Source: a virus
Direction: 5' to 3' (one strand)
Virus genome (UHGV): UHGV-0251712
DNA: 16,144 nucleotides
Within the stretch, counting starts at the first letter, position 1; each line of letters starts with the position of its first letter. Under the pieces are notes generated by a model. It had not been told where the DNA came from, ran no database searches, and saw only the letters and a list, made by a program, of their open reading frames with translations. Of this stretch, positions 2,335-16,144 are shown in pieces. Both the position numbers and the translations under genes were made by a program.

Positions 2335-2536
2335 ACCCTCAGGAGTTTCAAATAGCTGTTCTTTTTACGGAAATACTTATGAACTGGCTGGAATAAAGTG
2401 CAAGAAAATGTGACTACCCTCGCATTTTTATCTGACATGATCTGTTGCCACTCGCTGTCAAATTGTTGCGCTAAAGCTGATTAGCACGGTGATATTTGAT
2501 ACTCTGGCAGACAGCAGAAATAACGGATTTAACCTA

Positions 2537-2584
2537 ATGATGAATGACGGTAAGCAACAATCTACCTTTTTGTTTCACGATTAC
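2537..2584 (+). pseudogene. sbcB: 5' fragment of sbcB (exonuclease I): first 16 codons only
   Basis: Translation MMNDGKQQSTFLFHDY matches the N-terminus of E. coli exonuclease I as I recall it (continues ETFGTHPALD in the intact protein). Here it continues AQHP and stops. Divergent orientation from dacD matches K-12. Confidence 0.6.
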
Positions 2585-3205
2585 GCGCAACACCCCTGAG
2601 AACCGCCATGAACAAGGGTTTCATGATTTGTGATTTTAGTTTGGTACGCAATTTGGTACACAACACAATTTTCACTTCAGCGGGTAGTCATCAAACTCAC
2701 CATAACGAGCATCGTTAATGATGTATGTGATCACCACAAACATCACATCTGGACTAGTTCCGCTTTCATGCGCAGGTATTTGTTCACGCCTCCCTTTCTG
2801 CAAATCATAAAGATGAGATTTTGGGGTTTTGGGATATCTTTTATCCGCAGTTCTCTATCCATTATGCAAACCAGTAATGAACCATCACCGTGTGATAGTG
2901 AGGCATCTGCCACGATAAGCGCAGAGAAATGATGCAGTGGTGGGCGGACTGGATTGATGAGAAGGTGGAGTGAACCACCTTAACCACTATCGAAGAGCAC
3001 AAAGCCTTGCAATCCAGTACAAAACTTTGTTTGTCTCATCAACTACCGCAAGTATCGATCGATGGAGCCTTGGATGATAGAATAAATTCGTAGCACTTTT
3101 TTTTAAAGTATCATCTCGCTCATGGTTACGTGATAGAAAAAGGACAAAATAATCTTAAATTTAAAAGCATATAAATCATACAAATAAAATTGTGGTGGGT
3201 GCGTA

Positions 3206-4204
3206 ATGTCTGATATTCGACAAAATAGAATAGAGTTAAATGAAGTGCATATAGCTCGCTCCATGGCTATATTTCTAGTTGTTTTACTTCATTCTTCAGG
3301 TGCTTTTTTTATGCAGTTTGGAGATCATTGGTGGATTGTTAATTTATACAGTTCTTTTTCAAGGCAGTGTATAGGTCTTTTTTTTCTTATCACTGGATAC
3401 CTATTTTATGAAAAAAACATAAACCCAACAGCACACCTAAAAAAAGGAGTGTCGAGATTGATAATACCATTCATATTTTGGTGGGTGGTATATTATATCT
3501 ACAATACAGAGATTAACAACAAATCATATAATTCTATATTTCAACCAAGTGAGGTACACCTTTGGTTTATGTATGCATATATTTGTATATATATGTTTTT
3601 ACCAATAATTTGCAACTCATTAAAACACATACCAACATATTACATTTTAATTATTGTAAGCATGCTTTTTTACTCAAATTCCATTGTCCCTGTAGTTGAT
3701 AAAACGATAATGAAGGTAACATGGTTTGATGTAAAACTAGTGTCTGAAAATGGGATATATATTCTTATTGGGGCAATAATAAGGAGATATAACGATAAAA
3801 TAAAAAAATGCAATGCAGTGATACCATTGGTGATTATTGTTATGTCGTGCCTGTTAACATCAATGGCATCTAGTTGGTGGTCTGAAATAACAGGCAGGCC
3901 TGAGCAGTTTTTCTTTAAAAATACATCTCCACTTGTATTAATATGTGTTATTTCTTCATTTACATTATGCATGTCATACTCAAAAATAATTAGCAAAAGA
4001 TTAATGAATTTATTTACATCAATATCAAATGTTTCATTTGGTATATACTTCGTCCATTTCTTTTTTGTTAGAGAAATTAGACTCGGGTATAATCAAGAAA
4101 ACGCATATTTCATGATACCATTGCTAACAATCATTTATTTTTTAATGTCATATTGCATATCAATAATTCTAAGCAAGATCCCTTTGCTTAGAAAAGTAAT
4201 ATAA
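3206..4204 (+). CDS. Acyltransferase family 3 integral membrane protein, probable phage-encoded O-antigen O-acetyltransferase (Oac-like)
   Basis: 332 aa, highly hydrophobic with many predicted transmembrane segments. N-terminal pattern R-x-E-L-N...A-R-S-M-A-I-F-L-V-V-L-L-H resembles the acyltransferase-3 signature. Strongly AT-rich relative to neighbours. Convergent with and abutting the tailspike gene, as in Sf6-like phages. Confidence 0.7.
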   Translation: MSDIRQNRIELNEVHIARSMAIFLVVLLHSSGAFFMQFGDHWWIVNLYSSFSRQCIGLFFLITGYLFYEKNINPTAHLKKGVSRLIIPFIFWWVVYYIYNTEINNKSYNSIFQPSEVHLWFMYAYICIYMFLPIICNSLKHIPTYYILIIVSMLFYSNSIVPVVDKTIMKVTWFDVKLVSENGIYILIGAIIRRYNDKIKKCNAVIPLVIIVMSCLLTSMASSWWSEITGRPEQFFFKNTSPLVLICVISSFTLCMSYSKIISKRLMNLFTSISNVSFGIYFVHFFFVREIRLGYNQENAYFMIPLLTIIYFLMSYCISIILSKIPLLRKVI

Positions 4205-6451
4205 TTATGGATTGTTAACCTTCCATCTTTTATCATAGTAATGCAAATATCCCTGAGACGTTAGTGTCATATGGACAATCGCTTGGGATATTTGCGCGTT
4301 CTGAAAATTAACTCTAATAAATACTTGAGTGCCAATTGTTATTTTTGATACAGATATCCCGTCAAGAGTCTTGTCTCCTTGTATTTTATTAACCCAAACA
4401 CCTGACGAAGACAAGGTTGCCTGATCCTTTCCGCTTATACTAAATATAATTTTACCTCCTGTTGCCAGTGAGGTGTTTACTCCATTTTGAGATATTGGAA
4501 TTATTGTAATTTCACCAGCAATGAAAACACCATTTTTGTATTTAGATACCTCACCTTGTTCACAAATTAAAATATCAATACATCTACCCCATGGTACTAG
4601 GATTGTTGCATTTTCAGTTTTTACTTGTGGATATACAGCTGAAACACCTGCAGATTCGAAATTTTTTGCTGATAAAACAACTCCGTCAGATCCATTTCTA
4701 AATCCCATTCCTGTATGATCACCGTATGTCCTTCCATGAGAGATGAATCCTCTTACATACTCTTCGGATACTGCGCTACCAGTGGTTTCCTTCTGAAAGA
4801 TAAATGTTTCACCAAAAGAAAAACCACGACATTGGTATTGGCTCTGATAATTTTCTGAGTTCTTAAAAAAGGAAATGCCTTTATATGCTGTTACATAGCC
4901 AGATCTAAATTGAACGGAAACAGGGGTTGTTTGTTCATCTGGAGGTAACTCCACAAAATGTGTAACATTTTGGCTGTTTGATTCCTGTAACCATACAGAA
5001 ACACCATCTATAATCATGGTTGAAAATCTACTGTTTATTTCTAACTCAGAAAAATCAAGAACATGATCACCTGTAACACCCTCAACTCCAAACCCATCAA
5101 TACTTAAAGACCTGAACTGATAGAATTTATGCGGTAACTCACAACCATCAGCTGCAATATTCATTGCGCTAGTGTACATTAATGGGTAAGGACTTATAAT
5201 TGGTTCATATGTTTCTCTATCTATTGCAGCCCCCCAAAGATACCCAACATTACAATGTCTTGCCCAGTTGGAAGAGAATGTAGTAGATGTGCCAGCCAAA
5301 CCGAAACCATAGATACAATCATATGCTTGGTTGTTTGTAACATTACTGACAAAGCATGATAAGGGAAGTGCAAATTTATAATGTAGAAATATGTTATTTT
5401 TAATATCATATTCACTACCCCCGCCAAAGGTTTGTGTTTGACCAGAAATGGCCAATGGGCTACCTGAATATTCATCGTCAGCGTTGCGAAAACACATATT
5501 CTTTACTTTAAGATTGTGCCCCCAACTTCCCATAACAAAACCACCACTTCCTGATGTATAAACAATACTTTTTTGTGGATTAATCCCATATAGATTTAGA
5601 CTAATCCCTTCCCATCTAAACTGGCTAATGTCAATTTGAGTGTTACCAATATATATAGGCTGGTCTATGAAAACAGGAAGTTTAGTTAGATAAGCTTTAT
5701 TAAGTGCTAATCCATCATTTGTTACACCTGTTAAATCAACGCCCCCCATGCTTGGCGCTCTAGGATACCCTGTGGCCTGAATAGTACTCCAGTCAATATA
5801 TGGAGCATCCATCCACGCTCCAAACATACGTGGTGTTACGTACCCCTTACCTTGAAGATCACGTTTCCAGCGTTTACCACCCACAGTGACAATGACCATG
5901 CCGTTATCATCTGCAGAAGTAGAATCTGTGAAATCGGCCACAAACAGACCACCACCAGTATCACCTGATACTGTCGGCTTCATGCCTGTAGTGTGGAAGT
6001 CGACGAAAATCTTTTGCTGATCTCGCTCAGGCTCAATTGTCCTTAACATTGCTATATCAGGGCATGTCCCGATGTATTTAAGACCGTCTTCCCCTGATAG
6101 AGATACTTTAAGCTGATCAGGATCATATTTAAGAACATTCGGAAAATAGAACTGCTGTGCACCATATGCATCATAAACAGCCATAGAATGGCCTTGCACA
6201 GTTACGAACTTGGCAATCTGTCCGTTATATACCGGATATCCAGCAGCGTTAATGATGATTGGTTGCGAAACAGGAACGCGAGAACCGTCTTCATTCTCCA
6301 CATAAACCTGAATCTGGTTTTCAGGATTTACCGGGTCAGTGTCAATTTTACCGATATAAATTTTGCCATTGGCTACGGCTTTAAAAGAACGAGCCATAGT
6401 GAAGAGTTGCGAAGGCATGCTTACCACAACATTTGCGGTGATATCTGACAT
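4205..6451 (-). CDS. P22-like tailspike protein (gene 9 homologue) with conserved head-binding N-terminal domain and divergent receptor-binding domain
   Basis: From the internal Met, [43 protein letters not shown]...VLKYDPDQ aligns with the P22 tailspike N-terminal domain ([43 protein letters not shown]). A GGAG ribosome-binding site sits 7 nt upstream of the ATG at 6449-6451. The ORF-track start at 6499 is probably an upstream extension. Confidence 0.85.
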
Positions 6452-6572
6452 TTCATTGCTCCAGACGAATGATATGATGCAACCATGATGTGATTGCATA
6501 CCGAAATGGTACTATTGAGTATTTATCCAGTAGGTTACGATGCCATTCCACCCAACTGGTGAGGCATCAAGG

Positions 6573-6833
6573 ATGTACAGCAAATACGACGAGGCGCAGT
6601 TTCACTTGAGACTTCCGCATGAACTCCACGCGAAAATTAAGCAGCGTGCGAAGATGAATAACAGGTCGCTGAACTCAGAGATAATTGCAGCGATTGAAGA
6701 ATCATTGGCTAAACAAAGCTCTGCATCTGTTTACATTGACGATGCAGAGCGTATGGCAGAACAACAATCTGATATGGTTAAGAAAATTGTCTTTGATACG
6801 CTCAAGGAGCTATATAAAAAAGACAGCAGCTAA
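6573..6833 (+). CDS. mnt: Mnt-like ribbon-helix-helix repressor (P22 immI region)
   Basis: QFHLRLPHELHAKIKQRAKMNNRSLNSEII...DDAERMAEQQSDMVKKIVFDTLKELYKK aligns with P22 Mnt (HFNFRMPMEVREKLKFRAEANGRSMNSELL...NDAERLADEQSELVKKMVFDTLKDLYKK). AAGGA ribosome-binding site before the ATG at 6573. Divergent from the tailspike gene. Confidence 0.75.
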   Translation: MYSKYDEAQFHLRLPHELHAKIKQRAKMNNRSLNSEIIAAIEESLAKQSSASVYIDDAERMAEQQSDMVKKIVFDTLKELYKKDSS

Positions 6834-6922
6834 CCATCAGTTACGGAGGATTTATGCAAAGAGATATGCTGAACATTGCGTTCTACATATTTGGTTTTTG
6901 CACGTTCCTGGTGTTTGCGAAG

Positions 6923-9316
6923 CTATTCTGACAACGCATCAGACTTGGCACCCTGAGTAAGGGCGTTAATGGCCTTTTGCGCCTGCTGCATGGCTTTCTC
7001 AAACGCTGTTGATCCGCGTGGGGTGTTTGCCATTCGGAGCATTGCATTTCTGAATGGCTCGCTCTCATAGGCGCGAGTAAGAAGTCCGTAGCTTACTGCT
7101 GCGCCAGTTGTCGCCGGGTTCATTGCCGTCCCATATCCGATAATGAACGGGATGGTTTGCTGCCCTGTTGGTGTTGTTACTGCCGCTTTTGCTGCCTGCT
7201 GAGTGGACTGAAGGTAGTTTTTCAATCCTTTCAGATAAGCGGCTTCCTGACCTTTAAATGTGATGCCAGTCTGGTTTTGCAGGATGTTAAGCTGTCGAAG
7301 GAACTGGTCAGGTGAACCACCTGATTTCTCTATCGCCTTTCCAATAATGCCATTGCGCATTTGCGCTCTTCCAACGCGACCAACTGAGTTATACAGCGTC
7401 TTAATTTCCGATTTGTTCTTGCTGAATAGCATGTTGTTGACAACTTCCGGCGTCAGGTCGCCTTTCATGAGAACATTCTTCAGCCTGGTATTCTTTAGTT
7501 TCGCCGCTTCGTCAGCGTATACGGCATTGGCCTGCTGATATTTACGGAGAGTATCGTTGCCAAGATTCTGACCAATGGCACCATTGATATCGTCTGTCAT
7601 CGCCTTGTAAACGCGCTGAATGGCAGCATCGGAACGGTTTGGTAACACTGGTCGTTCACCCTTCACGTCCATTCTGAACTGGCTGCGCAGATCGCTTAAT
7701 TGCTTCAAATCCAGATTTACCGGACCATCAGGACCAGCATTGCGAACAAGCTCATCACGATATGACTGAAGTTTTGAAATAGTCTCGTTATCAGCAACCT
7801 TACCAAGCTTCTGCAGGTTAGATATTTCTGTATCAATCTGCTGAATTGCTCGCGCAGGCTGAATGTTTACTCCAGCCATAGCATTCTGAACCTGCTCCAG
7901 TCGATTACCGGCGGCACGACGAATTCCTGATGTTTTCGCTTTAAGGCTGTCAATAACAACAGATGGATCATACTCACCGAATTTATCAGCAAATCTCTGC
8001 ACCAACTGGCTTCTCGCTTCCTGTTGCGTTGCTCTCATTCCGCTTGTGCCAGCCAGAGGAATATTTTCTGCTGTAGTCTGCGCCATTTTTCCGACGCGGG
8101 AAGTAGGCTGTAACAGGTCTGTGGTGTGCAGAGGAACTCCTTCACGCTCTGCAAATCTGATAGCTTGCTGTGCTTCTGGCGCGATAGCACCACGAACGCC
8201 ACGATAAGCAGCACCTAATCCACGTCCGGCAGCGTTAATAGCACCGCCAGCAAGTACACCAACGCCTAAATCGGTGGCGAGTGCTTCCGCATCATCTTTC
8301 GCACTATTTGCAGCAAGTGATCCAACTGCGTTTTCTGCTAGAAGGCGAGTTGCCCCCTGAGCAATTCGACCAGCAAGTGTTGGTGCCTGTGCTGCCGCTC
8401 TCTCAACGCCAGCAGGAGTGAGGTAAGGCAATGCTTCAGCAAATACCCTTCCCTCTGTCGTTTGTGGAGTCAGCGCGCCTTGCCGAAGGCCAAAGTCCCG
8501 CTCTAATCCCTGCGTTGTTACTCGTGGTGCTGGTTGATATGTACCATCGCCAATGCCGAGTTTACCGCCAGCCCAAGCCGCCGCGCTTGTTACAGCATCA
8601 GTGAGTTCAGCAGGTATGTTCGCTACGTTGATTCCTGCCTGTAGTATGCCGCGCCCGGTTTCAGCAAGTCCATTACCAAGGTCAGACATTATTCCGCCTT
8701 GCTGCTGAACAGGTTTCGGTGCGACAGAACTTACGGGTTGAGGTGGCTGCTGACTGGCTGCCTGCTGCTCAATCTGAGCAAATGGATTATTTGGGTCTGA
8801 CTGCACACCTGATGCCGATACTTGTTCGGATGACTGTACTTCCAGTTGTGCAAACGGGTTGTTAGGGTCTTGCTGAGGATGTACCTTTGCAGAGGTGGCG
8901 CGCTGTTCGACTGTTGAGTCTGTCACCGGGTCACCCGCCCATTGAGCAAAGCGATCATCAACGTAACCGCGGCCTTCAGGTCCTGGCGTATATTCACCAC
9001 GCTTTGCCTTCATAACGTTGCCGGGACCGTCGTGATAAGCCTGAAGAGCGTCACGCCAGTTACCAAACTGCTGGTACATCTTTGCCAGATAGCGCGCGCC
9101 AGCGTCAGCCTGATATTCGGGGTTTTGCATTTGCTCATCGGTATAACCCATATCACGCCATGTCCCAGGCATGACCTGAGTCAATCCTACAGCCCCGGCG
9201 GAGCTTACTGCGGCAGGGTTGTAAGAAGACTCCTTGGCACCCAGTGCAGTCATCAACCCTTCTGGCACACCGTAACGTGCGCCAGCCTGCTCTAACAAAT
9301 CACGGTAATTAGCCAT
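6923..9316 (-). CDS. Phage ejection/injection (internal virion) protein with N-terminal lytic transglycosylase-like domain
   Basis: 797 aa. N-terminus (GVPEGLMTALGAKESSYNPAAVSSAGAVGLTQVMPGTW) resembles the SLT-domain catalytic region (E-S...GLMQ pattern). Start ATG immediately follows the stop of the upstream 443-aa gene. Sits between the ejection genes and the mnt/tailspike region, like P22 gene 16. Confidence 0.65.
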   Translation of the reverse strand: MANYRDLLEQAGARYGVPEGLMTALGAKESSYNPAAVSSAGAVGLTQVMPGTWRDMGYTDEQMQNPEYQADAGARYLAKMYQQFGNWRDALQAYHDGPGNVMKAKRGEYTPGPEGRGYVDDRFAQWAGDPVTDSTVEQRATSAKVHPQQDPNNPFAQLEVQSSEQVSASGVQSDPNNPFAQIEQQAASQQPPQPVSSVAPKPVQQQGGIMSDLGNGLAETGRGILQAGINVANIPAELTDAVTSAAAWAGGKLGIGDGTYQPAPRVTTQGLERDFGLRQGALTPQTTEGRVFAEALPYLTPAGVERAAAQAPTLAGRIAQGATRLLAENAVGSLAANSAKDDAEALATDLGVGVLAGGAINAAGRGLGAAYRGVRGAIAPEAQQAIRFAEREGVPLHTTDLLQPTSRVGKMAQTTAENIPLAGTSGMRATQQEARSQLVQRFADKFGEYDPSVVIDSLKAKTSGIRRAAGNRLEQVQNAMAGVNIQPARAIQQIDTEISNLQKLGKVADNETISKLQSYRDELVRNAGPDGPVNLDLKQLSDLRSQFRMDVKGERPVLPNRSDAAIQRVYKAMTDDINGAIGQNLGNDTLRKYQQANAVYADEAAKLKNTRLKNVLMKGDLTPEVVNNMLFSKNKSEIKTLYNSVGRVGRAQMRNGIIGKAIEKSGGSPDQFLRQLNILQNQTGITFKGQEAAYLKGLKNYLQSTQQAAKAAVTTPTGQQTIPFIIGYGTAMNPATTGAAVSYGLLTRAYESEPFRNAMLRMANTPRGSTAFEKAMQQAQKAINALTQGAKSDALSE

Positions 9317-10648
9317 TTACTGCCCCAAAGATGGAAGATATCCGTAGCGATTAATGAAGTCGATTGACAGCTCGGGGTGCTGCTTCAGGTAATCTATAGA
9401 AGCCTGAGGCGCTTCCACTCGCTTGATACCGTTTTGCTGAACGTACTTACCAACCGCCTCATTACGCTTCTGGTTGAGCGTGTTCAGGATGACGCCAGCG
9501 TTGCGACGAAAGGACTCCTCGCTCTGCGAGTTCTGCAGCGAACCAACAGCCTGGTCGAGCTTTTTGCCCTCGGCATCAGAAAGTGCGCCCATGCCTCGCA
9601 TGGCCTGAACCGCTGTCAGGTATGCTTGGGATTTAAAGGTATCAAGTCGTGCCTGAGTGTCTGCAGCCTGTGAGCCTGGAACGTTGGGGATTACTCCACG
9701 TAAGCCTGTAATGCTCTTAAGTGAAGGAGAACTAACGATATCGTTCAGAGTGAACATGCTGGTTGTGAGGGTGTTGATGCCGTCTTTGTAGCCATCATTT
9801 AGCGCTTGCTGCTTCTGCTGCAACTGCTGGTTGTTGGCTGCTATGCGGCTCTGTATTTCCTGGCGCTTCAGGTCGTTAGTTTCTGCTGATAGCATCCGGT
9901 CAAGGCGCTTATTTTCGTTGTTAATGCGGTTTGTTTCTGCGTCCAGATTAATGCGCTGCTGACCTAAATTCGCCTGGATATCTTGCCCGCGCATTGTGAT
10001 TGCCTGATTCCGAGCGGCGGTTTGCGAATCCAGATCCTGACCGCGCATGGTAACCTGGCGACCCTGCATTTTATCCTGTAGGTCAAAGTATTTTTCGGGT
10101 CCGAGACTGTTCATCCCCAGGTGATCGACAAATTCGCCGAACTGCCGCGGGTTCTGTTGGTACATCTGAGCGACATCCTGAGGATTAACGCCAACACGAG
10201 CTAACTCACCGGCGTTGTTTTGCAGCCATGATTGCATTGCTTCTGGAGACGATGACGCAAGGCGTGCGCCAGCCGCTAAGGTGCCGATAGAATTACGCTG
10301 ATCTTCATCAATGAATCCCATGCCTTTACGAACGGATTCAATCTGTTCTGGATATTGAGTAGCCAACTGACGCAAAGCACCGCGATCACCAGACGCATAA
10401 GCATTAGCGTATGCCTGCTGAAATTCTTTCTGCCGCTGAGCCTGCTTTTCCTGCTGAAACACCCCCGCAATACCTGAAAGGCCTTGCAAAGCAGTCAGCC
10501 CAACATTGTTAGCGCCTGAACGCTCAATATCATTGTTCTGCCTGATAAGCTGAAGCGTATTGCCGATGTCATTTACGCTCGGAGCGTTTGAGTTGACGCC
10601 GCCGATACCAGCCAACAATCCGCCGTTTGTTCCTTGCCAAGTAGCCAT
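9317..10648 (-). CDS. Phage ejection/DNA-transfer protein (P22 gene 20-like)
   Basis: 443 aa, Q/N/A-rich low-complexity with coiled-coil character; in operon with and immediately upstream of the 797-aa protein; size and context fit P22-like gp20. Family assignment is by context only. Confidence 0.55.
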   Translation of the reverse strand: MATWQGTNGGLLAGIGGVNSNAPSVNDIGNTLQLIRQNNDIERSGANNVGLTALQGLSGIAGVFQQEKQAQRQKEFQQAYANAYASGDRGALRQLATQYPEQIESVRKGMGFIDEDQRNSIGTLAAGARLASSSPEAMQSWLQNNAGELARVGVNPQDVAQMYQQNPRQFGEFVDHLGMNSLGPEKYFDLQDKMQGRQVTMRGQDLDSQTAARNQAITMRGQDIQANLGQQRINLDAETNRINNENKRLDRMLSAETNDLKRQEIQSRIAANNQQLQQKQQALNDGYKDGINTLTTSMFTLNDIVSSPSLKSITGLRGVIPNVPGSQAADTQARLDTFKSQAYLTAVQAMRGMGALSDAEGKKLDQAVGSLQNSQSEESFRRNAGVILNTLNQKRNEAVGKYVQQNGIKRVEAPQASIDYLKQHPELSIDFINRYGYLPSLGQ

Positions 10649-10657
10649 GATTACCCC

Positions 10658-10855
10658 TTAAAACAACGAGCCAAGCAATCCGATACCAGCACCAATGCCA
10701 GCGCCCCAAGGCGTTGATGTTCCCAAAAGGCTGGCAAGACCTGCACCGGCAATCGCACCAGACGTGCCACCGCTAATTGCAGTCTGAAGACTTGATGGTT
10801 TAACCAAAGAGTAGTTGGCTTTGGGGTGACGTGAAGTGCAGCTGCACGACGGCAA
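10658..10855 (-). CDS. Small Gly/Ala-rich ORF, possibly the 3' remnant of an upstream ejection-protein gene (gene 7-like) truncated by a deletion joint
   Basis: 65-aa ORF ending 9 bp before the 443-aa gene. Hydrophobic Gly/Ala-rich C-terminus. Begins at a TTG inside the region occupied on the other strand by the ssb fragment, so its 5' end is unlikely to be native. Confidence 0.3.
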
Positions 10856-11267
10856 CCTGACAATAGCAACGTCAGAACAATGGCGAGATAAAAATACTGG
10901 CGAGCAAAAGGAATTGACTGAATGGCATCGTGTTGCTGTATCCGGGAAACTGGCTGAGGTCGTGGGGCAGTATGTGAAAAAAGGTGATCAGATTTATTTC
11001 GAGGGAATGCTGAGAACCAGAAAGTGGAAAGACCAGTCAGGGCAAGACCGTTACACAACCGAGGTTCATGTCGGAATTAATGGCGTGATGCAAATGCTTG
11101 GCGGCATTGGCGACAGCAAACAACAAGCAGCCAGCAGGCAATCACAGAAGCCACAGCAGCAATCATCACCAGCACAACACAACGAACCTCCGATGGATTT
11201 TGACGACGATATACCCTTTGCACCAGTAACTCTCCCCTTCCCTCGTCACGCTATTCACGCAATTTAA
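10830..11267 (+). pseudogene. ssb: Single-stranded DNA-binding protein gene (ssb), 5'-truncated and with a C-terminal extension beyond the DDDIPF tip
   Basis: Translation [22 protein letters not shown]...[54 protein letters not shown]...[10 protein letters not shown] aligns with E. coli SSB from about residue 30 onward. The N-terminal ~30 residues are absent (in-frame stop at 10827-10829). After DDDIPF there is no stop and the frame continues 15 codons. Confidence 0.75.
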
Positions 11268-11280
11268 TCAGGAGAAAATC

Positions 11281-11577
11281 ATGCCAGCGCCTCAGTATGG
11301 TGCGGATGACCCGCGCCGCTGTTCCGGCAATTCCGTATCGGAGGTGCTGGATAAATTCAGAAAAAACTACGACCGGATAATGTCGCTACCGCAGGAAACA
11401 AAAGAGGAAAAGGAATTTCGCCACTGTATATGGCTTGCAGAGAAAGAAGAACGAGAGCGAATTTACCAGACATCAATCCGACCATTCCGCAAAGCCACAT
11501 ATACCCACTTCCCTGAATATATCGACCCGCGCCTGCGTAATTACCGCTCACGCTATGGCTCTATCAGTAATGACTGA
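11281..11577 (+). CDS. Hypothetical prophage early-region protein
   Basis: 98-aa ORF with AGGAG ribosome-binding site 7 nt upstream; tightly packed in the early operon after ssb. No family recognised. Confidence 0.45.
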
Positions 11578-11587
11578 GGAATTTACC

Positions 11588-11755
11588 ATGAGAGGACTTG
11601 CATACAATCCCGGCATTCTTCCGGCAGAAATGATTATTCGCCAACGCGTAAAGCCAATGCCATCGAGAGAGGAATTGCTTAAGAGAAATTCTTTTCCGTC
11701 AGTAAATCAAAACAAATATCTGAATGCGATGTGGCGTAAAGGAGGCAAGCAGTGA
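11588..11755 (+). CDS. Hypothetical small protein (55 aa)
   Basis: ATG at 11588 preceded by GAGG, follows the previous gene closely, and its stop overlaps the next start. The longer ORF-track version from 11435 overlaps the preceding gene and is less likely. Confidence 0.3.
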
Positions 11756-12051
11756 GTGTATGTCTTATTGATAAACGTCGACGTGGGCAACAAATACCAT
11801 CTGTTGGAATGCCGAATCACACATGGTTTTGCGTACTTGATATCGATGGTATGGATGCGTTGGTTGACACTCGTCATTACTGCGATACCGCAACAGCTAC
11901 TCCGGCGAAAGCAAAGAAAATGGCTGCTCTGATAGAAAACTGGACTCCACCTGATGGTTGGTGCAATGGGAATGATCGAGATTGGCACGAAAAAATGAAG
12001 GGCTATATCTGCGATTTTTTACGTAAATGCAACGGATTCAGGGTGATGTGA
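11752..12051 (+). CDS. Hypothetical prophage early-region protein (GTG start)
   Basis: 99-aa ORF; GTG start 6 nt after a GGAGG ribosome-binding site; overlaps the upstream stop. No family recognised. Confidence 0.4.
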
Positions 12052-12052
12052 C

Positions 12053-12742
12053 ATGAGCAAGATTGCCTATCAGGCACTGCGTGAAAAGGCAGAGAAAGCA
12101 ACGTGTGGTGTGTGGTCGCTCGAATATGGAGAGGGCCGATTTGATGGTGATGATGCGCTAATTCATCGTGAAGTTGCTGGATATATTCCCATTTGCAGAA
12201 TTGAAGGAGCGCATCCTGAAAGCGGTTTCGATGAAGATTTCCAAATGGAACAGCAGGCCAATGCTGAATTCATCGCAGCAGCCAGTCCAGCTACCGTGCT
12301 GGCACTACTGGATGAACGGGAAAGAAACCAGCAGTACATCAAACGCCGCGACCAGGAGAACGAAGATATTGCGCTAACGGTAGGGAAGCTGCGTGTTGAT
12401 CTGGAAGCCGCAGAGAAGCGCAACGCAAAATTACAAAGCGAGAATGCATACATCCGCAACAGGTACAAAGAACTGGACCTATTAATCGGGAAAAACATTC
12501 TGGTCATGCAGGCTGCCATTATCGAATGGCAATCTACTGGCGACGCTAAAAGCGGACTGGCATGGATTTATAACACACTGTTTGGCCCAGGCGAATTGCC
12601 GGACGAATCTGAGAAAGATGCTCAGGCCTACTTTAATCGCAAAAATGAACCGATTGACGAAAAGCTTATGGAGCTTCACAAGTGGTTTTGGGAACAAAGT
12701 GAAGCCGAGCGTGTCGCTGGCATTCGCATCAAAGGAGAGTGA
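12053..12742 (+). CDS. Ead/Ea22-like family protein (lambdoid early-left accessory protein)
   Basis: 229 aa with a central coiled-coil-like segment; N-terminus MSKIAYQALREKAEK... resembles proteins annotated Ead/Ea22-like in enterobacterial prophages (recollection, not searched); position in the early-left region. Confidence 0.5.
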   Translation: MSKIAYQALREKAEKATCGVWSLEYGEGRFDGDDALIHREVAGYIPICRIEGAHPESGFDEDFQMEQQANAEFIAAASPATVLALLDERERNQQYIKRRDQENEDIALTVGKLRVDLEAAEKRNAKLQSENAYIRNRYKELDLLIGKNILVMQAAIIEWQSTGDAKSGLAWIYNTLFGPGELPDESEKDAQAYFNRKNEPIDEKLMELHKWFWEQSEAERVAGIRIKGE

Positions 12743-12743
12743 T

Positions 12744-12941
12744 ATGGATAAAAACACCACTGCTTACTGGAATCTGTCACTTGATACCGAATGCCCAAAA
12801 TGCGGTCACAATTTCGATCTGCTTTGTGACGCTGATTTCTGGGAGTTTTCTGGAGCTAAACAGGCATGTGAAGAAATAAAAGGTTACAAAACATGCTGTC
12901 CGGAATGTAACCATGAATTTAAAACAGATTTCATATATTGA
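12744..12941 (+). CDS. Small zinc-ribbon protein
   Basis: 65 aa with CPKCG...CCPEC (two CxxC pairs). ATG overlaps the Ead stop (TGATATG) with an AAAGGAGAG ribosome-binding site upstream. Confidence 0.5.
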   Translation: MDKNTTAYWNLSLDTECPKCGHNFDLLCDADFWEFSGAKQACEEIKGYKTCCPECNHEFKTDFIY

Positions 12942-12951
12942 GGCATAACAA

Positions 12952-13398
12952 ATGACCACTATTACCAAAGAACGTATTGAATTGTTCATTAAAAATCCGC
13001 TTGAAAACGGGCTTACTCGTGGCGAACAAATGGAACTGGCACGAATTGCACTGGCATCACTGGAACGCGAACTGATTCGCCACGAGCATGCCAAATGGTC
13101 TGACTCCACATTTGGCTGCGTTGGCCCCATTGGTCCACTGAAACACCTCTCAAAAGAGACACTGGAAGCCGCAGCCGAACCAGACGATCTTAGCGAGTGG
13201 GCTGATATGCAGTTTCTGTTGTGGGATGCACAGCGCCGTGCTGGCATCAGCGATGCTGAAATTACCGCTGCTATGGAAGATAAATTGAAGATCAACATGG
13301 AGCGCCAGTGGCCTGAGCCAAAAGATGGTGAGCCTCGCTTGCACATTAAAGAACTCGGCAACTCTCCGGTAATTCCGGATGGTTCGGATGATGGTTAA
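12952..13398 (+). CDS. MazG-like nucleotide pyrophosphohydrolase-like protein (DUF550-like)
   Basis: 148 aa; segments HLSKETLEAAAE and DLSEWADMQFLLWDAQRRAG resemble the paired E-rich helices of MazG/HisE-type all-alpha NTP pyrophosphohydrolases. Assignment by motif resemblance only. Confidence 0.45.
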   Translation: MTTITKERIELFIKNPLENGLTRGEQMELARIALASLERELIRHEHAKWSDSTFGCVGPIGPLKHLSKETLEAAAEPDDLSEWADMQFLLWDAQRRAGISDAEITAAMEDKLKINMERQWPEPKDGEPRLHIKELGNSPVIPDGSDDG

Positions 13399-13433
13399 CC
13401 ATTTTTGATGTAAAAACATCCTTCTCTGAGGGC

Positions 13434-13462
13434 TTGCTCCTCAATAAGTTTGGTTTTATAAT
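13434..13462 (+). promoter_or_regulatory. Candidate sigma70 promoter for the NYN gene (TTGCTC - 17 bp - TATAAT)
   Basis: Perfect -10 hexamer TATAAT at 13457-13462 with TTGCTC 17 bp upstream, in the 149-bp gap before the NYN ORF. Sequence-only prediction. Confidence 0.3.
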
Positions 13463-13547
13463 TACGCGCAATGAAGGTGGGCGGTTCGCTACTATACAAG
13501 AGGGGTGTACCCCGCGAACTTAACCCACCACCACTTTCCTCTCTACT

Positions 13548-14195
13548 ATGAATTGCAAATCAATGACCAGAAAATATGCCATCATGATCGATGCTGGTTT
13601 TTTGCGTGCAAAATTAGGCACAAAAGATAAGCCAATCGATGCGGAAGTAATCAAAGTATTTGTAGAAAAACTAACAAAAAGGCATGAACTAGAAGGCATG
13701 ATTTTGCACCGTGTTTATTATTACGATGCAGAGCCGCTTACCGGAATACAGACGCATCCGATTAGTGGAGAGAAAATTGACTTCTCTGAAACAGAAGTTT
13801 CTAAAAGAAATAAAGCCATGCTTGATGAGTTGAAAAGAACTCCTTTTTTTGCAGTAAGACTTGGAGAGACAAACTTTCGAGGATGGAAGGTTGACCCATG
13901 GGCATTAAAGAGCAGTGACTCTAAAACTTCTTCCATTAATGCCTACAATGTTAAGCCTAATGTTCAGCAGAAAGGCGTTGATATGCGTATTGCGTTAGAT
14001 ATGTCATCAATGTCATTAAAAAAACAGGCAGATATATATGCTTTGGTGACTGGTGATTCAGATTTTGTTCCAATTATAAAATTTGCTAGGAAAGAAGGCC
14101 GACAGATTTTTCTATACACACTGGGACATAGTGTCAAGCAGACGATGTATGAACATTCCGATTTGTTAGTGCCAGATACCATGGATAAATTGTGA
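13548..14195 (+). CDS. NYN-domain (PIN-like, LabA/limkain-b1-type) predicted ribonuclease
   Basis: 215 aa with NYN hallmarks: N-terminal YAIMIDAGF, central KGVDMRIALDM, and C-terminal ALVTGDSDFVPIIKFARKEGRQIF (the typical GDxDF...G block). AT-rich relative to flanking phage genes. True start may be the ATG at 13563. Confidence 0.65.
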   Translation: MNCKSMTRKYAIMIDAGFLRAKLGTKDKPIDAEVIKVFVEKLTKRHELEGMILHRVYYYDAEPLTGIQTHPISGEKIDFSETEVSKRNKAMLDELKRTPFFAVRLGETNFRGWKVDPWALKSSDSKTSSINAYNVKPNVQQKGVDMRIALDMSSMSLKKQADIYALVTGDSDFVPIIKFARKEGRQIFLYTLGHSVKQTMYEHSDLLVPDTMDKL

Positions 14196-14374
14196 TTGGA
14201 GCTAGGAATAGGTTAGCCGCGCCTTAATAGATGATCCATTCTGGCAGAAAAAGAACACAAAGAAGTAGCCTAAGTGCCCCCAACTGCATTTACACCCAGG
14301 CCCTCATTGCGGGTCTTTCTATTTACAGAGATGGCTGAGCAGAACGCCAAGAACTGACAACCTGAACGAATACG

Positions 14375-14400
14375 AACCCGCCTAGTGCGGGTTTTCTTTT
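14375..14400 (+). terminator. Rho-independent terminator (stem aacccgc/gcgggtt plus T-run)
   Basis: 7-bp GC-rich stem with 5-nt loop followed by TTCTTTT. Confidence 0.65.
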
Positions 14401-14406
14401 ATCTGA

Positions 14407-14430
14407 ACTCGCTACGGCGAGTTTTGTTTT
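14407..14430 (+). terminator. Second tandem rho-independent terminator (stem actcgc/gcgagt plus T-run)
   Basis: 6-bp stem with 4-nt loop followed by TTTTGTTTT. Confidence 0.55.
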
Positions 14431-14442
14431 ATGGAGATGATT

Positions 14443-14742
14443 ATGGCCTGTTCAACATTCAACCATTTAACGTTACAGAAATACCAGCCAGACCCTGAAG
14501 ATTTATGCTCACTGTGTGGCGGAAATCATGGTAAAGCCGCCATGATCGAATGTAAGGACAAAATCCACATTTGCCTTAATTGCGTTGATGTCCTCGTTGA
14601 TATCAAAAATGAGAGAGAAGATAAAAAGCGTAGCGAGGCTATTCGCGCATTAGATTCATGGATGCGAGATGGGTATAGTGCTGCGCAAATTTATGACTTC
14701 GCAATATCAAAAGGCGAAATACCAGGAGTGCGCATCGAATAA
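14443..14742 (+). CDS. Small zinc-ribbon protein bounded by terminators
   Basis: CSLCGG...C...CLNC cysteine pattern. Start chosen at the ATG at 14443 because GGAG lies 6 nt upstream; the ORF track starts at 14431, which abuts the terminator T-run. Confidence 0.45.
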   Translation: MACSTFNHLTLQKYQPDPEDLCSLCGGNHGKAAMIECKDKIHICLNCVDVLVDIKNEREDKKRSEAIRALDSWMRDGYSAAQIYDFAISKGEIPGVRIE

Positions 14743-14782
14743 GACGTAACCAATATTCGAATTGAAGAACTGAAAGAACACC

Positions 14783-14809
14783 AAGCCGCCTGATGGCGGT
14801 TTCTTTTTG
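14783..14809 (+). terminator. Rho-independent terminator (stem aagccgcc/ggcgguu plus T-run)
   Basis: GC-rich hairpin followed by TTCTTTTT immediately after the zinc-ribbon ORF. Confidence 0.6.
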
Positions 14810-14822
14810 CCTGGAGAATTAA

Positions 14823-14927
14823 GATGACCGATACCAGCCTGATTCCTGAGAAAGAAGTGATGAACAAGCTCGGTGTTTCATCACGTCAGACAATCTGGAA
14901 CTATACCAAACGGCACGGATGGATATA
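14823..14927 (+). pseudogene. AlpA/excisionase-family helix-turn-helix gene, 3'-truncated (34 codons)
   Basis: MTDTSLIPEKEVMNKLGVSSRQTIWNYTKRHG fits the AlpA/Xis-type HTH pattern (L-x-x-x-E-V...G-x-S-R-x-T-I-x). Intact members run about 60-70 aa. Here the frame ends WI-stop inside the 36-bp inverted-repeat copy that starts at 14917. Confidence 0.5.
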
Positions 14928-14952
14928 GGTTACTGGCGAACACATGATTTCA
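14917..14952. repeat. Left copy of perfect 36-bp inverted repeat bracketing the integrase 3' segment
   Basis: ggatggatataggttactggcgaacacatgatttca is exactly the reverse complement of 15154-15189, with mismatches immediately outside both ends. Confidence 0.9.
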
Positions 14953-15140
14953 GAAGAACGCTTGTTACACGTCTGTCCGAGATGAATGTCGAGCCTCATG
15001 TTACTGAGCGAATGCTCGGTCATGAACTTGGCGGGATAATGTCCGTATACAATAAACACGATTGGATAGAGGCTCAGCGCAAAGCGTATGAGCTTCACGC
15101 TGATAAATTGTTCTGGCACATCAGGAGCATTTCTGATTAA
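14919..15140 (+). pseudogene. Detached C-terminal segment of a tyrosine integrase, inverted relative to the rest of the gene
   Basis: MDIGYWRTHDFRRTLVTRLSEMNVEPHVTERMLGHELGGIMSVYNKHDWIEAQRKAYELHADKLFW carries the H-x-x-R and catalytic Tyr region. Its first 11 residues duplicate the last residues of the minus-strand integrase ORF. Confidence 0.8.
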
Positions 15141-15148
15141 CGCCACCG

Positions 15149-16144
15149 TTAAGTGAAATCATGTGTTCGCCAGTAACCTATATCCATCCCTCCCCTTATT
15201 CTATTTACGAATCGGTTGGCTGCAGCGATGCTGATCGGTTTGTTTATGTCTTCTCCAGGGAAAAGAACATCATTGTACGTTGTCATGGCCTTATCGAGGA
15301 AAGGCTTAATTTGTTCGAAGATTGGACGGCGGATAACATTACCCATCTTGCTATGCTCTTTCGGTACGGTCCATACGTTGTCCAGCAGGTCAAATTCTGT
15401 CTTTGTTGCCAGCCTAAGCTCTGAGAGCCTCGCCCCCCACAGCATAAGCATCTGATGAAGGAGCTTATTTGACGTAGACGCACGGCTTCTTTCAATAGCA
15501 AGCCAAATCTTAGCCAGTTCGTGATACGACAGTACCCGATCCCCTACCTCAGCGCGGGAGCCGAAGTCCCTTGGCTGGATGCTCATAATTGCGCAACTAT
15601 CTATCAACTGACGCCGCATGCACCAACTAATTGCTGATCTTAGTTGACTTAGCACCTGCCTTGCTCGGCGTGGATTATCTTTTTCTTCTTCGGTAAGCAG
15701 GTCAACCCATTGCTTAACCGTGATAGAAGATGCCGGACGATTAGGAAAGGCGTCATGCATGCGCTTCATAACCGTTGATCGGTAAAGTGCCTGGGTCTTT
15801 TCTCTGAGAGTTGTAGAGACGTAGTTGTCGAACCAGTAGTCGAGACACTGGGCGACCGTCATGGAGTTCTCCACCTTCTCTTCAAAATAAGTGCGTGGAT
15901 CCGTTCCTGAGAAATAGAGCTTTCGCAAGTCAGCAGTGATCTGTCTGGCATCCTTCAAAGACAGGGATGGGTATCGACCAAGCCCAAGTCGATTAGGCTT
16001 GCCATGCCAGCGATAGCGGTACTGGAACTGGATGACCCCCTTCGGTGAAATTCGTACGCTGAGGCCATCGGCATCAGCCACTTCTTGTGGGCCCGAATAT
16101 GGTTTACCATAAATAGTACGCAGTTTTGTGTCGCTTATAGCCAT
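15149..16144 (-). CDS. P4-type tyrosine integrase, N-terminal 330 codons; truncated before the catalytic Tyr
   Basis: N-terminus has the arm-binding pattern of P4-family integrases (GLSVRISPKGVIQFQYRYRWHGKPNRLGLGRYPSLSLKDAR). ORF ends ...GGMDIGYWRTHDFT-stop at the right copy of the 36-bp repeat. Start codon is the last 3 bases of the window. Confidence 0.8.
   Translation of the reverse strand: MAISDTKLRTIYGKPYSGPQEVADADGLSVRISPKGVIQFQYRYRWHGKPNRLGLGRYPSLSLKDARQITADLRKLYFSGTDPRTYFEEKVENSMTVAQCLDYWFDNYVSTTLREKTQALYRSTVMKRMHDAFPNRPASSITVKQWVDLLTEEEKDNPRRARQVLSQLRSAISWCMRRQLIDSCAIMSIQPRDFGSRAEVGDRVLSYHELAKIWLAIERSRASTSNKLLHQMLMLWGARLSELRLATKTEFDLLDNVWTVPKEHSKMGNVIRRPIFEQIKPFLDKAMTTYNDVLFPGEDINKPISIAAANRFVNRIRGGMDIGYWRTHDFT
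15154..15189. repeat. Right copy of perfect 36-bp inverted repeat
   Basis: Reverse complement identical to 14917-14952. Confidence 0.9.

Follow-up and report, generated by a model that had tools for sequence, protein, structure and literature searches.

A short EaA-type DUF550 protein in a P22-like prophage remnant, probably a MazZ-type nucleotide pyrophosphohydrolase

The DNA considered here is a stretch of 16,144 nucleotides from the virus genome UHGV-0251712, which we refer to in its entirety as the window. Positions 12952-13398 of the window hold a genuine, intact gene of an already annotated phage family, the product of which, a protein of 148 residues, is very probably a MazZ-type enzyme that releases pyrophosphate from (d)NTPs in a metal-dependent manner. 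The protein is a complete catalytic domain and not the product of a broken gene, and the gene itself, by position as well as by sequence comparison, is the homologue of phage P22 eaA in the form of a short allele. Here, we describe the family and predicted fold of the protein, its putative active site, the recombination that shaped the gene and the prophage remnant in which it lies, before then weighing what the enzyme may do.

The open reading frame and its family

The gene, its translation signal and its domain are placed as follows.

12940..12943, + strand: GAGG, a Shine-Dalgarno-like sequence 8 nt 5' of the ATG (read from the sequence)
12952..13398, + strand: complete open reading frame of 148 codons, ATG to TAA (from the list of open reading frames), encoding a short EaA-type DUF550 protein
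13075..13359, + strand: PF04447 catalytic domain, MazZ-like, residues 42-136 (Pfam match)

The GAGG overlaps the TGA stop codon (12939-12941) of an eaI-like gene that lies immediately 5', as expected for a densely packed phage operon. The protein matches the Pfam profile PF04447 with 141.1 bits (E=1.3e-41, covering profile positions 1-95 of 97), the curated gathering threshold of this family being 23 bits, and chance is no explanation for a match of this strength. PF04447 is the former DUF550 and is now named 'dATP/dGTP pyrophosphohydrolase', a name that may mislead on the substrate, given the clade-specific base pocket described below. An earlier, sequence-only reading had called the protein a MazG-like pyrophosphohydrolase and had named MazG and DUF550 as the profiles to search; the identity is borne out by the PF04447 match together with the top structural match to MazZ (7ODY), and of the two profiles it is DUF550 that is found, while canonical MazG (PF03819) is not. 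At E<=0.01, the Pfam scan returned neither PF03819 nor PF01503 nor any other match from the MazG clan besides PF04447, and the PADLOC scan at the same threshold gave no match of the protein to a defence-system model. The NCBIfam scan likewise gave no match, and the twelve PHROGs families that matched are every one of them labelled 'unknown function'.

The family is large, with 6710 homologues at E<=0.001 in a collection clustered at 90% and 3516 representative clusters at 50% identity. Comparison of the DUF550 domain with that of P22 eaA gives pN=0.18 against pS=0.84, which indicates strong purifying selection.

Predicted fold and structural relatives

An AlphaFold2 monomer model of the protein, built on 64 diverse relatives, has a mean pLDDT of 85 and consists of a four-helix bundle (residues 23-54, 60-75, 80-96 and 101-117, pLDDT >90) followed by a C-terminal segment in which pLDDT is low beyond residue ~125. 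Such low values would be expected if the segment packs against a partner chain. In a Foldseek search of the PDB the best match of the model is cyanophage S-2L MazZ, 7ODY (prob 1.00, target TM 0.72), with an rmsd of 2.8 A over 88 columns and 28% identity; it is followed by Bacillus subtilis YpjD, Bacillus MazG, HisE and Deinococcus DR2231, all of them enzymes of the MazG/HisE fold. The absolute Foldseek E-value is weak (0.057), though the matches are mutually coherent. Alignment of the family profile to MazZ with hhalign gives a probability of 82.6% (E=9.6e-6), and in a PDB sequence search MazZ is the sole match, with E-values so weak (0.48 for the single sequence, 0.051 for the profile) that the link in fold is carried by Foldseek and hhalign. 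Searched against BFVD, the model finds viral proteins that UniProt names 'dATP/dGTP diphosphohydrolase MazZ domain-containing protein'. The model thereby places the protein in the all-alpha NTP pyrophosphohydrolase superfamily (MazG/HisE fold), and structure prediction, which had been put forward as a check on the MazG-like assignment, agrees with it in that a four-helix bundle was obtained with enzymes of this fold as its top matches.

The putative active site and substrate pocket

The residues that would form the active site were mapped onto MazZ through three concordant alignments, with their roles taken from published work on that enzyme (PMC8342488). Briefly, MazZ has the metal ligands E34, E35, E38, E50 and D53, the transition-state residue R83 and a set of pocket residues (PMC8342488). 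R83, W85, R94 and H95 serve to complete the partner chain's pocket and to stabilise the transition state, D60 reads the 2-amino group (N2) of guanine, and I12, I16 and N20 of helix 1 contact the base (PMC8342488). The corresponding segments in the 148-residue protein are listed here.

13153..13167, + strand: metal-binding motif 1, K68-E69-T70-L71-E72, on helix 60-75 (alignments to MazZ)
13195..13206, + strand: metal-binding motif 2, E82-W83-A84-D85, on helix 80-96 (alignments to MazZ)
13225-13227, + strand: D92, the equivalent of MazZ D60 (alignments to MazZ)
13303..13344, + strand: C-terminal segment R118...W120...R129...H131 (alignment to MazZ)

Motifs 1 and 2 together make up the ExxE...ExxD signature of the all-alpha NTP pyrophosphohydrolases. 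They are also the two E-rich helix motifs that had been noticed in the sequence beforehand, K68-E69-T-L-E72 and E82-W-A-D85, and they do fall on consecutive predicted helices. Four of the MazZ metal ligands, E35, E38, E50 and D53, correspond to E69, E72, E82 and D85, and the fifth, E34, which is variable even within MazZ-1, corresponds to K68. The alignment to MazZ suggests that the four acidic residues would cluster in three dimensions. R83 of MazZ corresponds to R118, and K76, N80, W85, R94 and H95 to K111, N115, W120, R129 and H131, such that the pocket residues which MazZ receives from the partner chain are kept in the 148-residue protein, for which the model is of the monomer.

Conservation was assessed in 64 diverse homologues that are 59-82% identical to the protein. 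K68, E69, E72, E82, W83, A84 and D85 are invariant in this set, as are R118, W120, R129 and H131, and D92 is kept in at least 90%. Every mapped equivalent of a MazZ active-site residue is thus either invariant or at least 90% conserved, from which we take the catalytic apparatus to be intact. T70, between the glutamates of motif 1, replaces an alanine found in at least 90% of the homologues. The residues that contact the base are another matter, as I12, I16 and N20 of MazZ correspond to H46, S50 and F54, which are invariant within the clade. Because these differ from MazZ and are fixed in the clade, the dGTP/dATP specificity is not confidently transferred, and the substrate may differ.

Relationship to P22 EaA and the mosaic junction

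P22 EaA (eaA, AAF75006.1) is a protein of 317 residues built from a leader, a 41-residue insert, the DUF550 domain, a linker and a DUF551 domain. It has in common with the 148-residue protein the leader, the PF04447 domain and a position in the early-left 'ea' block, and over leader plus domain the two are 63% identical. As in P22 EaA orthologues, the gene lies 3' of ead/Ea22 and eaI and encodes the N-terminal leader of EaA. In contrast to P22 EaA, the 148-residue protein has neither the 41-residue insert that separates leader and domain nor the linker and the C-terminal DUF551 (PF04448); the leader - DUF550 - DUF551 architecture of the orthologues is left incomplete, as the reading frame stops at residue 148. 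Two features of the gene bear on this history.

12952..13062, + strand: EaA leader module, residues 1-37, common to P22 EaA and to EaA variants without DUF550
13384..13385, + strand: mosaic junction, at which homology to DUF550-DUF551 alleles (for example phiv142-3 Eaa, 209 aa) stops

Over its first 113 nt the gene matches the beginning of P22 eaA at 92% identity, and 35 of the 37 leader residues are identical, against 79% identity in the domain. Between the two genes pS is 0.20 in the leader and 0.84 in the DUF550 domain, a difference that places a mosaic boundary between leader and domain. The 37-residue leader is present in 86 phage records, some of them annotated as DUF551-only, and it is a mobile N-terminal module. 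The bodies that stand behind it vary, being DUF550 with DUF551 in some cases, DUF551 alone in others, and other sequences besides.

At the other end of the gene, close relatives mostly have 198-260 residues and carry DUF551 (PF04448). Set against the locus of phiv142-3 (L001), the nucleotides are identical up to ...CCGGATGGTT and diverge beyond it, and the megablast match stops at query positions 433-438. Past 13384 there follow four new codons and a stop in place of the DUF551 domain, the absence of which from the 148-residue protein is due to this mosaic junction at the DUF550/DUF551 boundary. The junction at 13384 leaves the catalytic domain whole, the C-terminal EPRLHIK segment included.

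As a separate observation, positions 12952-13383 differ from phiv142-3 Eaa (L001, 5001-5432) at four of 144 codons, namely those for L41, T70, D78 and L135. All four differences are non-synonymous and none is synonymous, the comparison offering ~336 non-synonymous and 96 synonymous sites.

A deletion remnant of a P22-type prophage

Positions 2400-15150 of the window are a ~12-kb remnant of a Sf101/IME10-like (P22-type) prophage that lies between dacD/sbmC and sbcB. E. coli sbmC and dacD occupy bases 1-2400, and the principal features beyond them are these.

3206-4204: acyltransferase gene (Acyl_transf_3), beside the tailspike gene
4205-6499, - strand: P22-type tailspike gene
10803..10853: deletion junction of the remnant, where a truncated gene 7 (late, - strand) abuts a truncated ssb (early-left, + strand)
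12053-12742, + strand: Ead/Ea22-like gene (Pfam Ead_Ea22)
12744-12941, + strand: eaI-like gene, 65 aa, Cys-rich (gene calls in the related loci L004-L009)
14919-15140, + strand: fragment of the phage int, its last ~70 codons
15149-16144, - strand: convergent P4-type integrase with Arm-DNA-bind_3 and Phage_integrase domains, running past the window end

The acyltransferase is probably an O-antigen acetyltransferase for lysogenic conversion, of the Sf101 oac type. Beyond the tailspike follow a Mnt/Arc-like repressor and then, on the - strand, the ejection proteins gp16 and gp20. Homology to late genes of the IME10/Sf101 type stops at 10802 and homology to ssb starts at 10854, with the ssb product truncated at its N-terminus (the Pfam SSB profile is matched only from position 27). 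From these limits it follows that the deletion has taken pL and N as well as the genes for head, lysis, nin, replication and immunity. The int fragment that abuts the P4-type integrase (392 aa in locus L005) suggests that the attachment end of the prophage has undergone deletion or rearrangement. The same remnant junction is seen in three independent metagenome assemblies (L005, L006 and L009), and in a further locus (L008) sbcB is found beyond the remnant.

What is left of the early operon reads abc2, DUF2737, DUF7739, ead/Ea22, eaI-like and then the 12952-13398 gene, in correspondence with the P22 order abc2 - orf56 - eaE - eaF - eaD - eaI - eaA. The placing of the gene in an early accessory region, proposed from the sequence alone, therefore holds by homology, since the gene order mirrors that of the P22 ea region. 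Intact early-left operons with the identical 148-residue protein occur in two loci (L004 and L007), where the order is cI - N - cIII - kil - recT ... ead - eaI - 148-aa gene - NYN - int; in such relatives the gene would be an early gene driven from pL. For the remnant, a sigma-70 consensus scan found no useful + strand promoter between the deletion junction and the gene, and across 10500-15200 the promoter scan gave one weak match, where chance would yield 8. The promoter region of the operon is missing from the window because the prophage is a deletion remnant, and with pL and N lost the gene is probably poorly expressed or silent there.

The Ead/Ea22-like protein itself is a composite, as its N-terminal half corresponds to Pfam Ead_Ea22 and its residues 118-214 match the PADLOC model 'DpdH' (E=1.2e-36). 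The DpdH model represents a protein of the 7-deazaguanine Dpd DNA-modification island.

The NYN cassette downstream

Immediately 3' of the mosaic junction lies a cassette that is a neighbour of the DUF550 enzyme.

13385..14389, + strand: NYN cassette, neighbour of, not part of, the DUF550 enzyme
13548-14195, + strand: NYN-domain gene (Pfam NYN)

The cassette measures ~1 kb, has a low GC content (0.37-0.41) and is followed by three terminator-like hairpins at 14298-14424, 3' of the NYN gene. It looks like a moron-type insert. By megablast, none of the isolated phages in the collection matches 13390-14389, and phage homology resumes at 14389 with Sf6 gene 19 and a 'boundary sequence'. The cassette is present in E. 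coli prophages and IMG/VR contigs, whether or not DUF550 lies upstream.

The sequence-only reading had placed the enzyme directly upstream of an NYN insert. The adjacency is real, and it recurs in the lambda-att prophage of E. coli KTa005; a lasting partnership is not, as ten IMG/VR loci have the NYN gene at 87-97% identity and no DUF550 domain within 3 kb. A conserved two-gene module of DUF550 and NYN, which we considered, was rejected on account of these ten loci. They indicate that a history of recombination, and not a conserved partnership in function, links the two genes.

Further downstream, 14431-14742 encodes a protein of 103 residues with a Cys-rich N-terminus that belongs to phrog_3680 (unknown function), shows a weak resemblance to the zinc-binding domain of ClpX (NCBIfam, E~2e-3) and is homologous to Sf6 gene 19 and to 933W L0063.

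Known relatives and proposed activity

Three enzymes or groups of enzymes serve as points of comparison. The protein of Acinetobacter phage SH-Ab 15497 (AUG85482.1, with DUF5664 and DUF550 domains) has dGTP/dATP pyrophosphohydrolase activity (PMC12884076, PMC8342488) and is the founder of the current name of PF04447, of which it is the only member characterised biochemically. It has the same Pfam domain as the 148-residue protein and shares with it the ExxE, ExAD, K-x-x-x-N-x-x-R-x-W and H motifs, and yet it is a distant member of the family, scoring 33 bits against 141 for the 148-residue protein, with 36% identity between the two over 67 residues. It also differs in its length of 385 residues, in its N-terminal PF18909 domain and in its genomic setting, the gene being flanked by purZ and datZ in a phage with a Z-genome, which is not the case for the 12952-13398 gene. 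S-2L MazZ (7ODY) is a (d)GTP-specific diphosphohydrolase with the same four-helix MazG/HisE fold and C-terminal extension as are predicted here; identity is ~28%, the metal ligands E35, E38, E50 and D53 are conserved, and the 148-residue protein has an extra N-terminal leader of 40 residues. The MazZ gene, too, lies between purZ and datZ, flanks that the 12952-13398 gene does not have. Canonical MazG (PF03819), which includes Atd1, has the superfamily fold and the two-motif acidic metal site in common with the 148-residue protein, which matches PF04447 and not the PF03819 profile.

How the protein assembles and catalyses, on which substrate, when and to what physiological end is inferred, the mechanism by analogy with the solved MazZ enzyme. 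It would assemble as a dimer of dimers, in which helices 2-3 of one chain would hold two to three Mg2+/Mn2+ ions through E69, E72, E82 and D85, and the partner chain would complete the active site with its C-terminal segment (K111, N115, R118, W120, R129 and H131). A (d)NTP, most likely a purine dNTP, would be hydrolysed to the monophosphate and pyrophosphate; the purine dNTP is our best guess at the substrate, with perhaps an even chance of being right. In intact relatives the gene would have pL as its promoter and belong to the non-essential 'ea' block, which separates the recombination genes from xis/int, and the default reading of its role is that, at an early stage of lytic growth, the enzyme may condition the pool of nucleotides.

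Alternative explanations

The condition of the prophage raises the possibility, which we consider real but the less likely one, that this copy is an inactive relic, a decaying passenger of a dead element that yields no functional product. Little of int remains in the element, pL/N is gone along with the genes for immunity, replication, lysis and head, no promoter-like site lies on the + strand 5' of the gene, and every one of the four differences from the phiv142-3 allele changes an amino acid, including T70 at a near-invariant alanine. The gene itself tells against decay, with its reading frame, ribosome-binding site and every catalytic residue intact, and the excess of non-synonymous differences is compatible with chance given the numbers of sites of each kind. 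Moreover, the identical protein stands in the intact-looking early operons of L004 and L007, which makes this the allele of a functioning phage. Relic status is plausible for the expression of this copy, not for the protein.

Other readings accept an active enzyme and give it a different task from conditioning the dNTP pool. Counter-defence, the role suggested by the sequence-only reading, would have the protein destroy (p)ppGpp, cyclic or linear signalling nucleotides or chain-terminating analogues, maybe together with the NYN nuclease. A precedent exists in Atd1, a phage MazG-like pyrophosphatase that depletes (p)ppGpp and relieves TIR-STING toxicity (bioRxiv 10.1101/2022.06.09.495361), but Atd1 is a canonical MazG, the profile of which the 148-residue protein does not match at E<=0.01, and the characterised PF04447 relatives act on dGTP and dATP, not on alarmones. 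The gene does lie in a hypervariable accessory block with the anti-RecBCD gene abc2, and a Lar restriction-alleviation domain is fused to 2 of the 64 diverse homologues; on the other side, the ten NYN loci mentioned above speak against a conserved pair with the NYN gene, and our literature search found no functional screen reporting EaA/DUF550. On balance we judge counter-defence speculative and unlikely. We give similarly little credence to the related proposal that the pocket of the enterobacterial EaA/DUF550 clade (H46, S50, F54 and H65) may accept a substrate other than dGTP/dATP, for example a defence-generated or damaged nucleotide. If it were true, this would be a widespread and unrecognised counter-defence or pool-sanitising enzyme of temperate phages, and the modular EaA proteins (leader with or without DUF550, DUF551 and Lar) would be a toolkit of early host-takeover functions. 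Far more improbable still is a modified-base pathway, in which the enzyme would supply dGMP and/or remove a canonical dNTP as in Z-genome phages. That pathway is the one role of PF04447/MazZ enzymes that experiments have established, D92 aligns with the guanine-reading D60 of MazZ, and the C-terminal half of the neighbouring Ea22-like protein has its match to the DpdH model of the 7-deazaguanine island. Nevertheless, P22-like and lambdoid phages have canonical DNA, and neither among the window's open reading frames of at least 70 aa nor in the P22 ea region is there a PurZ, DatZ, DpoZ or other base-modification enzyme; in particular, we found no gene in the window for an adenylosuccinate-synthetase-like protein, an HD phosphohydrolase or a polymerase. 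In a published tree, besides, the Z-phage DUF550 proteins form a monophyletic group of their own (PMC12884076). A part for the gene in Z-DNA or other modified DNA was accordingly rejected, the partner genes being absent. A MazZ-type enzyme acting on the nucleotide pool remains our preferred reading, and what is left of general interest, in a way not specific to this window, is the role of a MazZ-like dNTP pyrophosphohydrolase in phages with canonical DNA.

Distribution and existing annotation

The gene is already known, being a very common prophage gene of an annotated family. Its RefSeq names are 'dATP/dGTP pyrophosphohydrolase domain-containing protein' or 'DUF550 domain-containing protein', and a literature search on DUF550 and the EaA protein returned mentions in annotation and no functional study of the enterobacterial protein. 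For annotation, the value of the present analysis lies in recognising that the 148-residue protein is a complete catalytic domain, that DUF551 was lost at a mosaic junction and that the host element is a dead remnant. Among 5426 complete E. coli genomes, 357 have the gene in near-identical form at a coverage of at least 80%, and 1311 have a partial match. The short form of 148 residues is itself common (cluster P0001, 104 members), and the identical protein is found on 24 public contigs.
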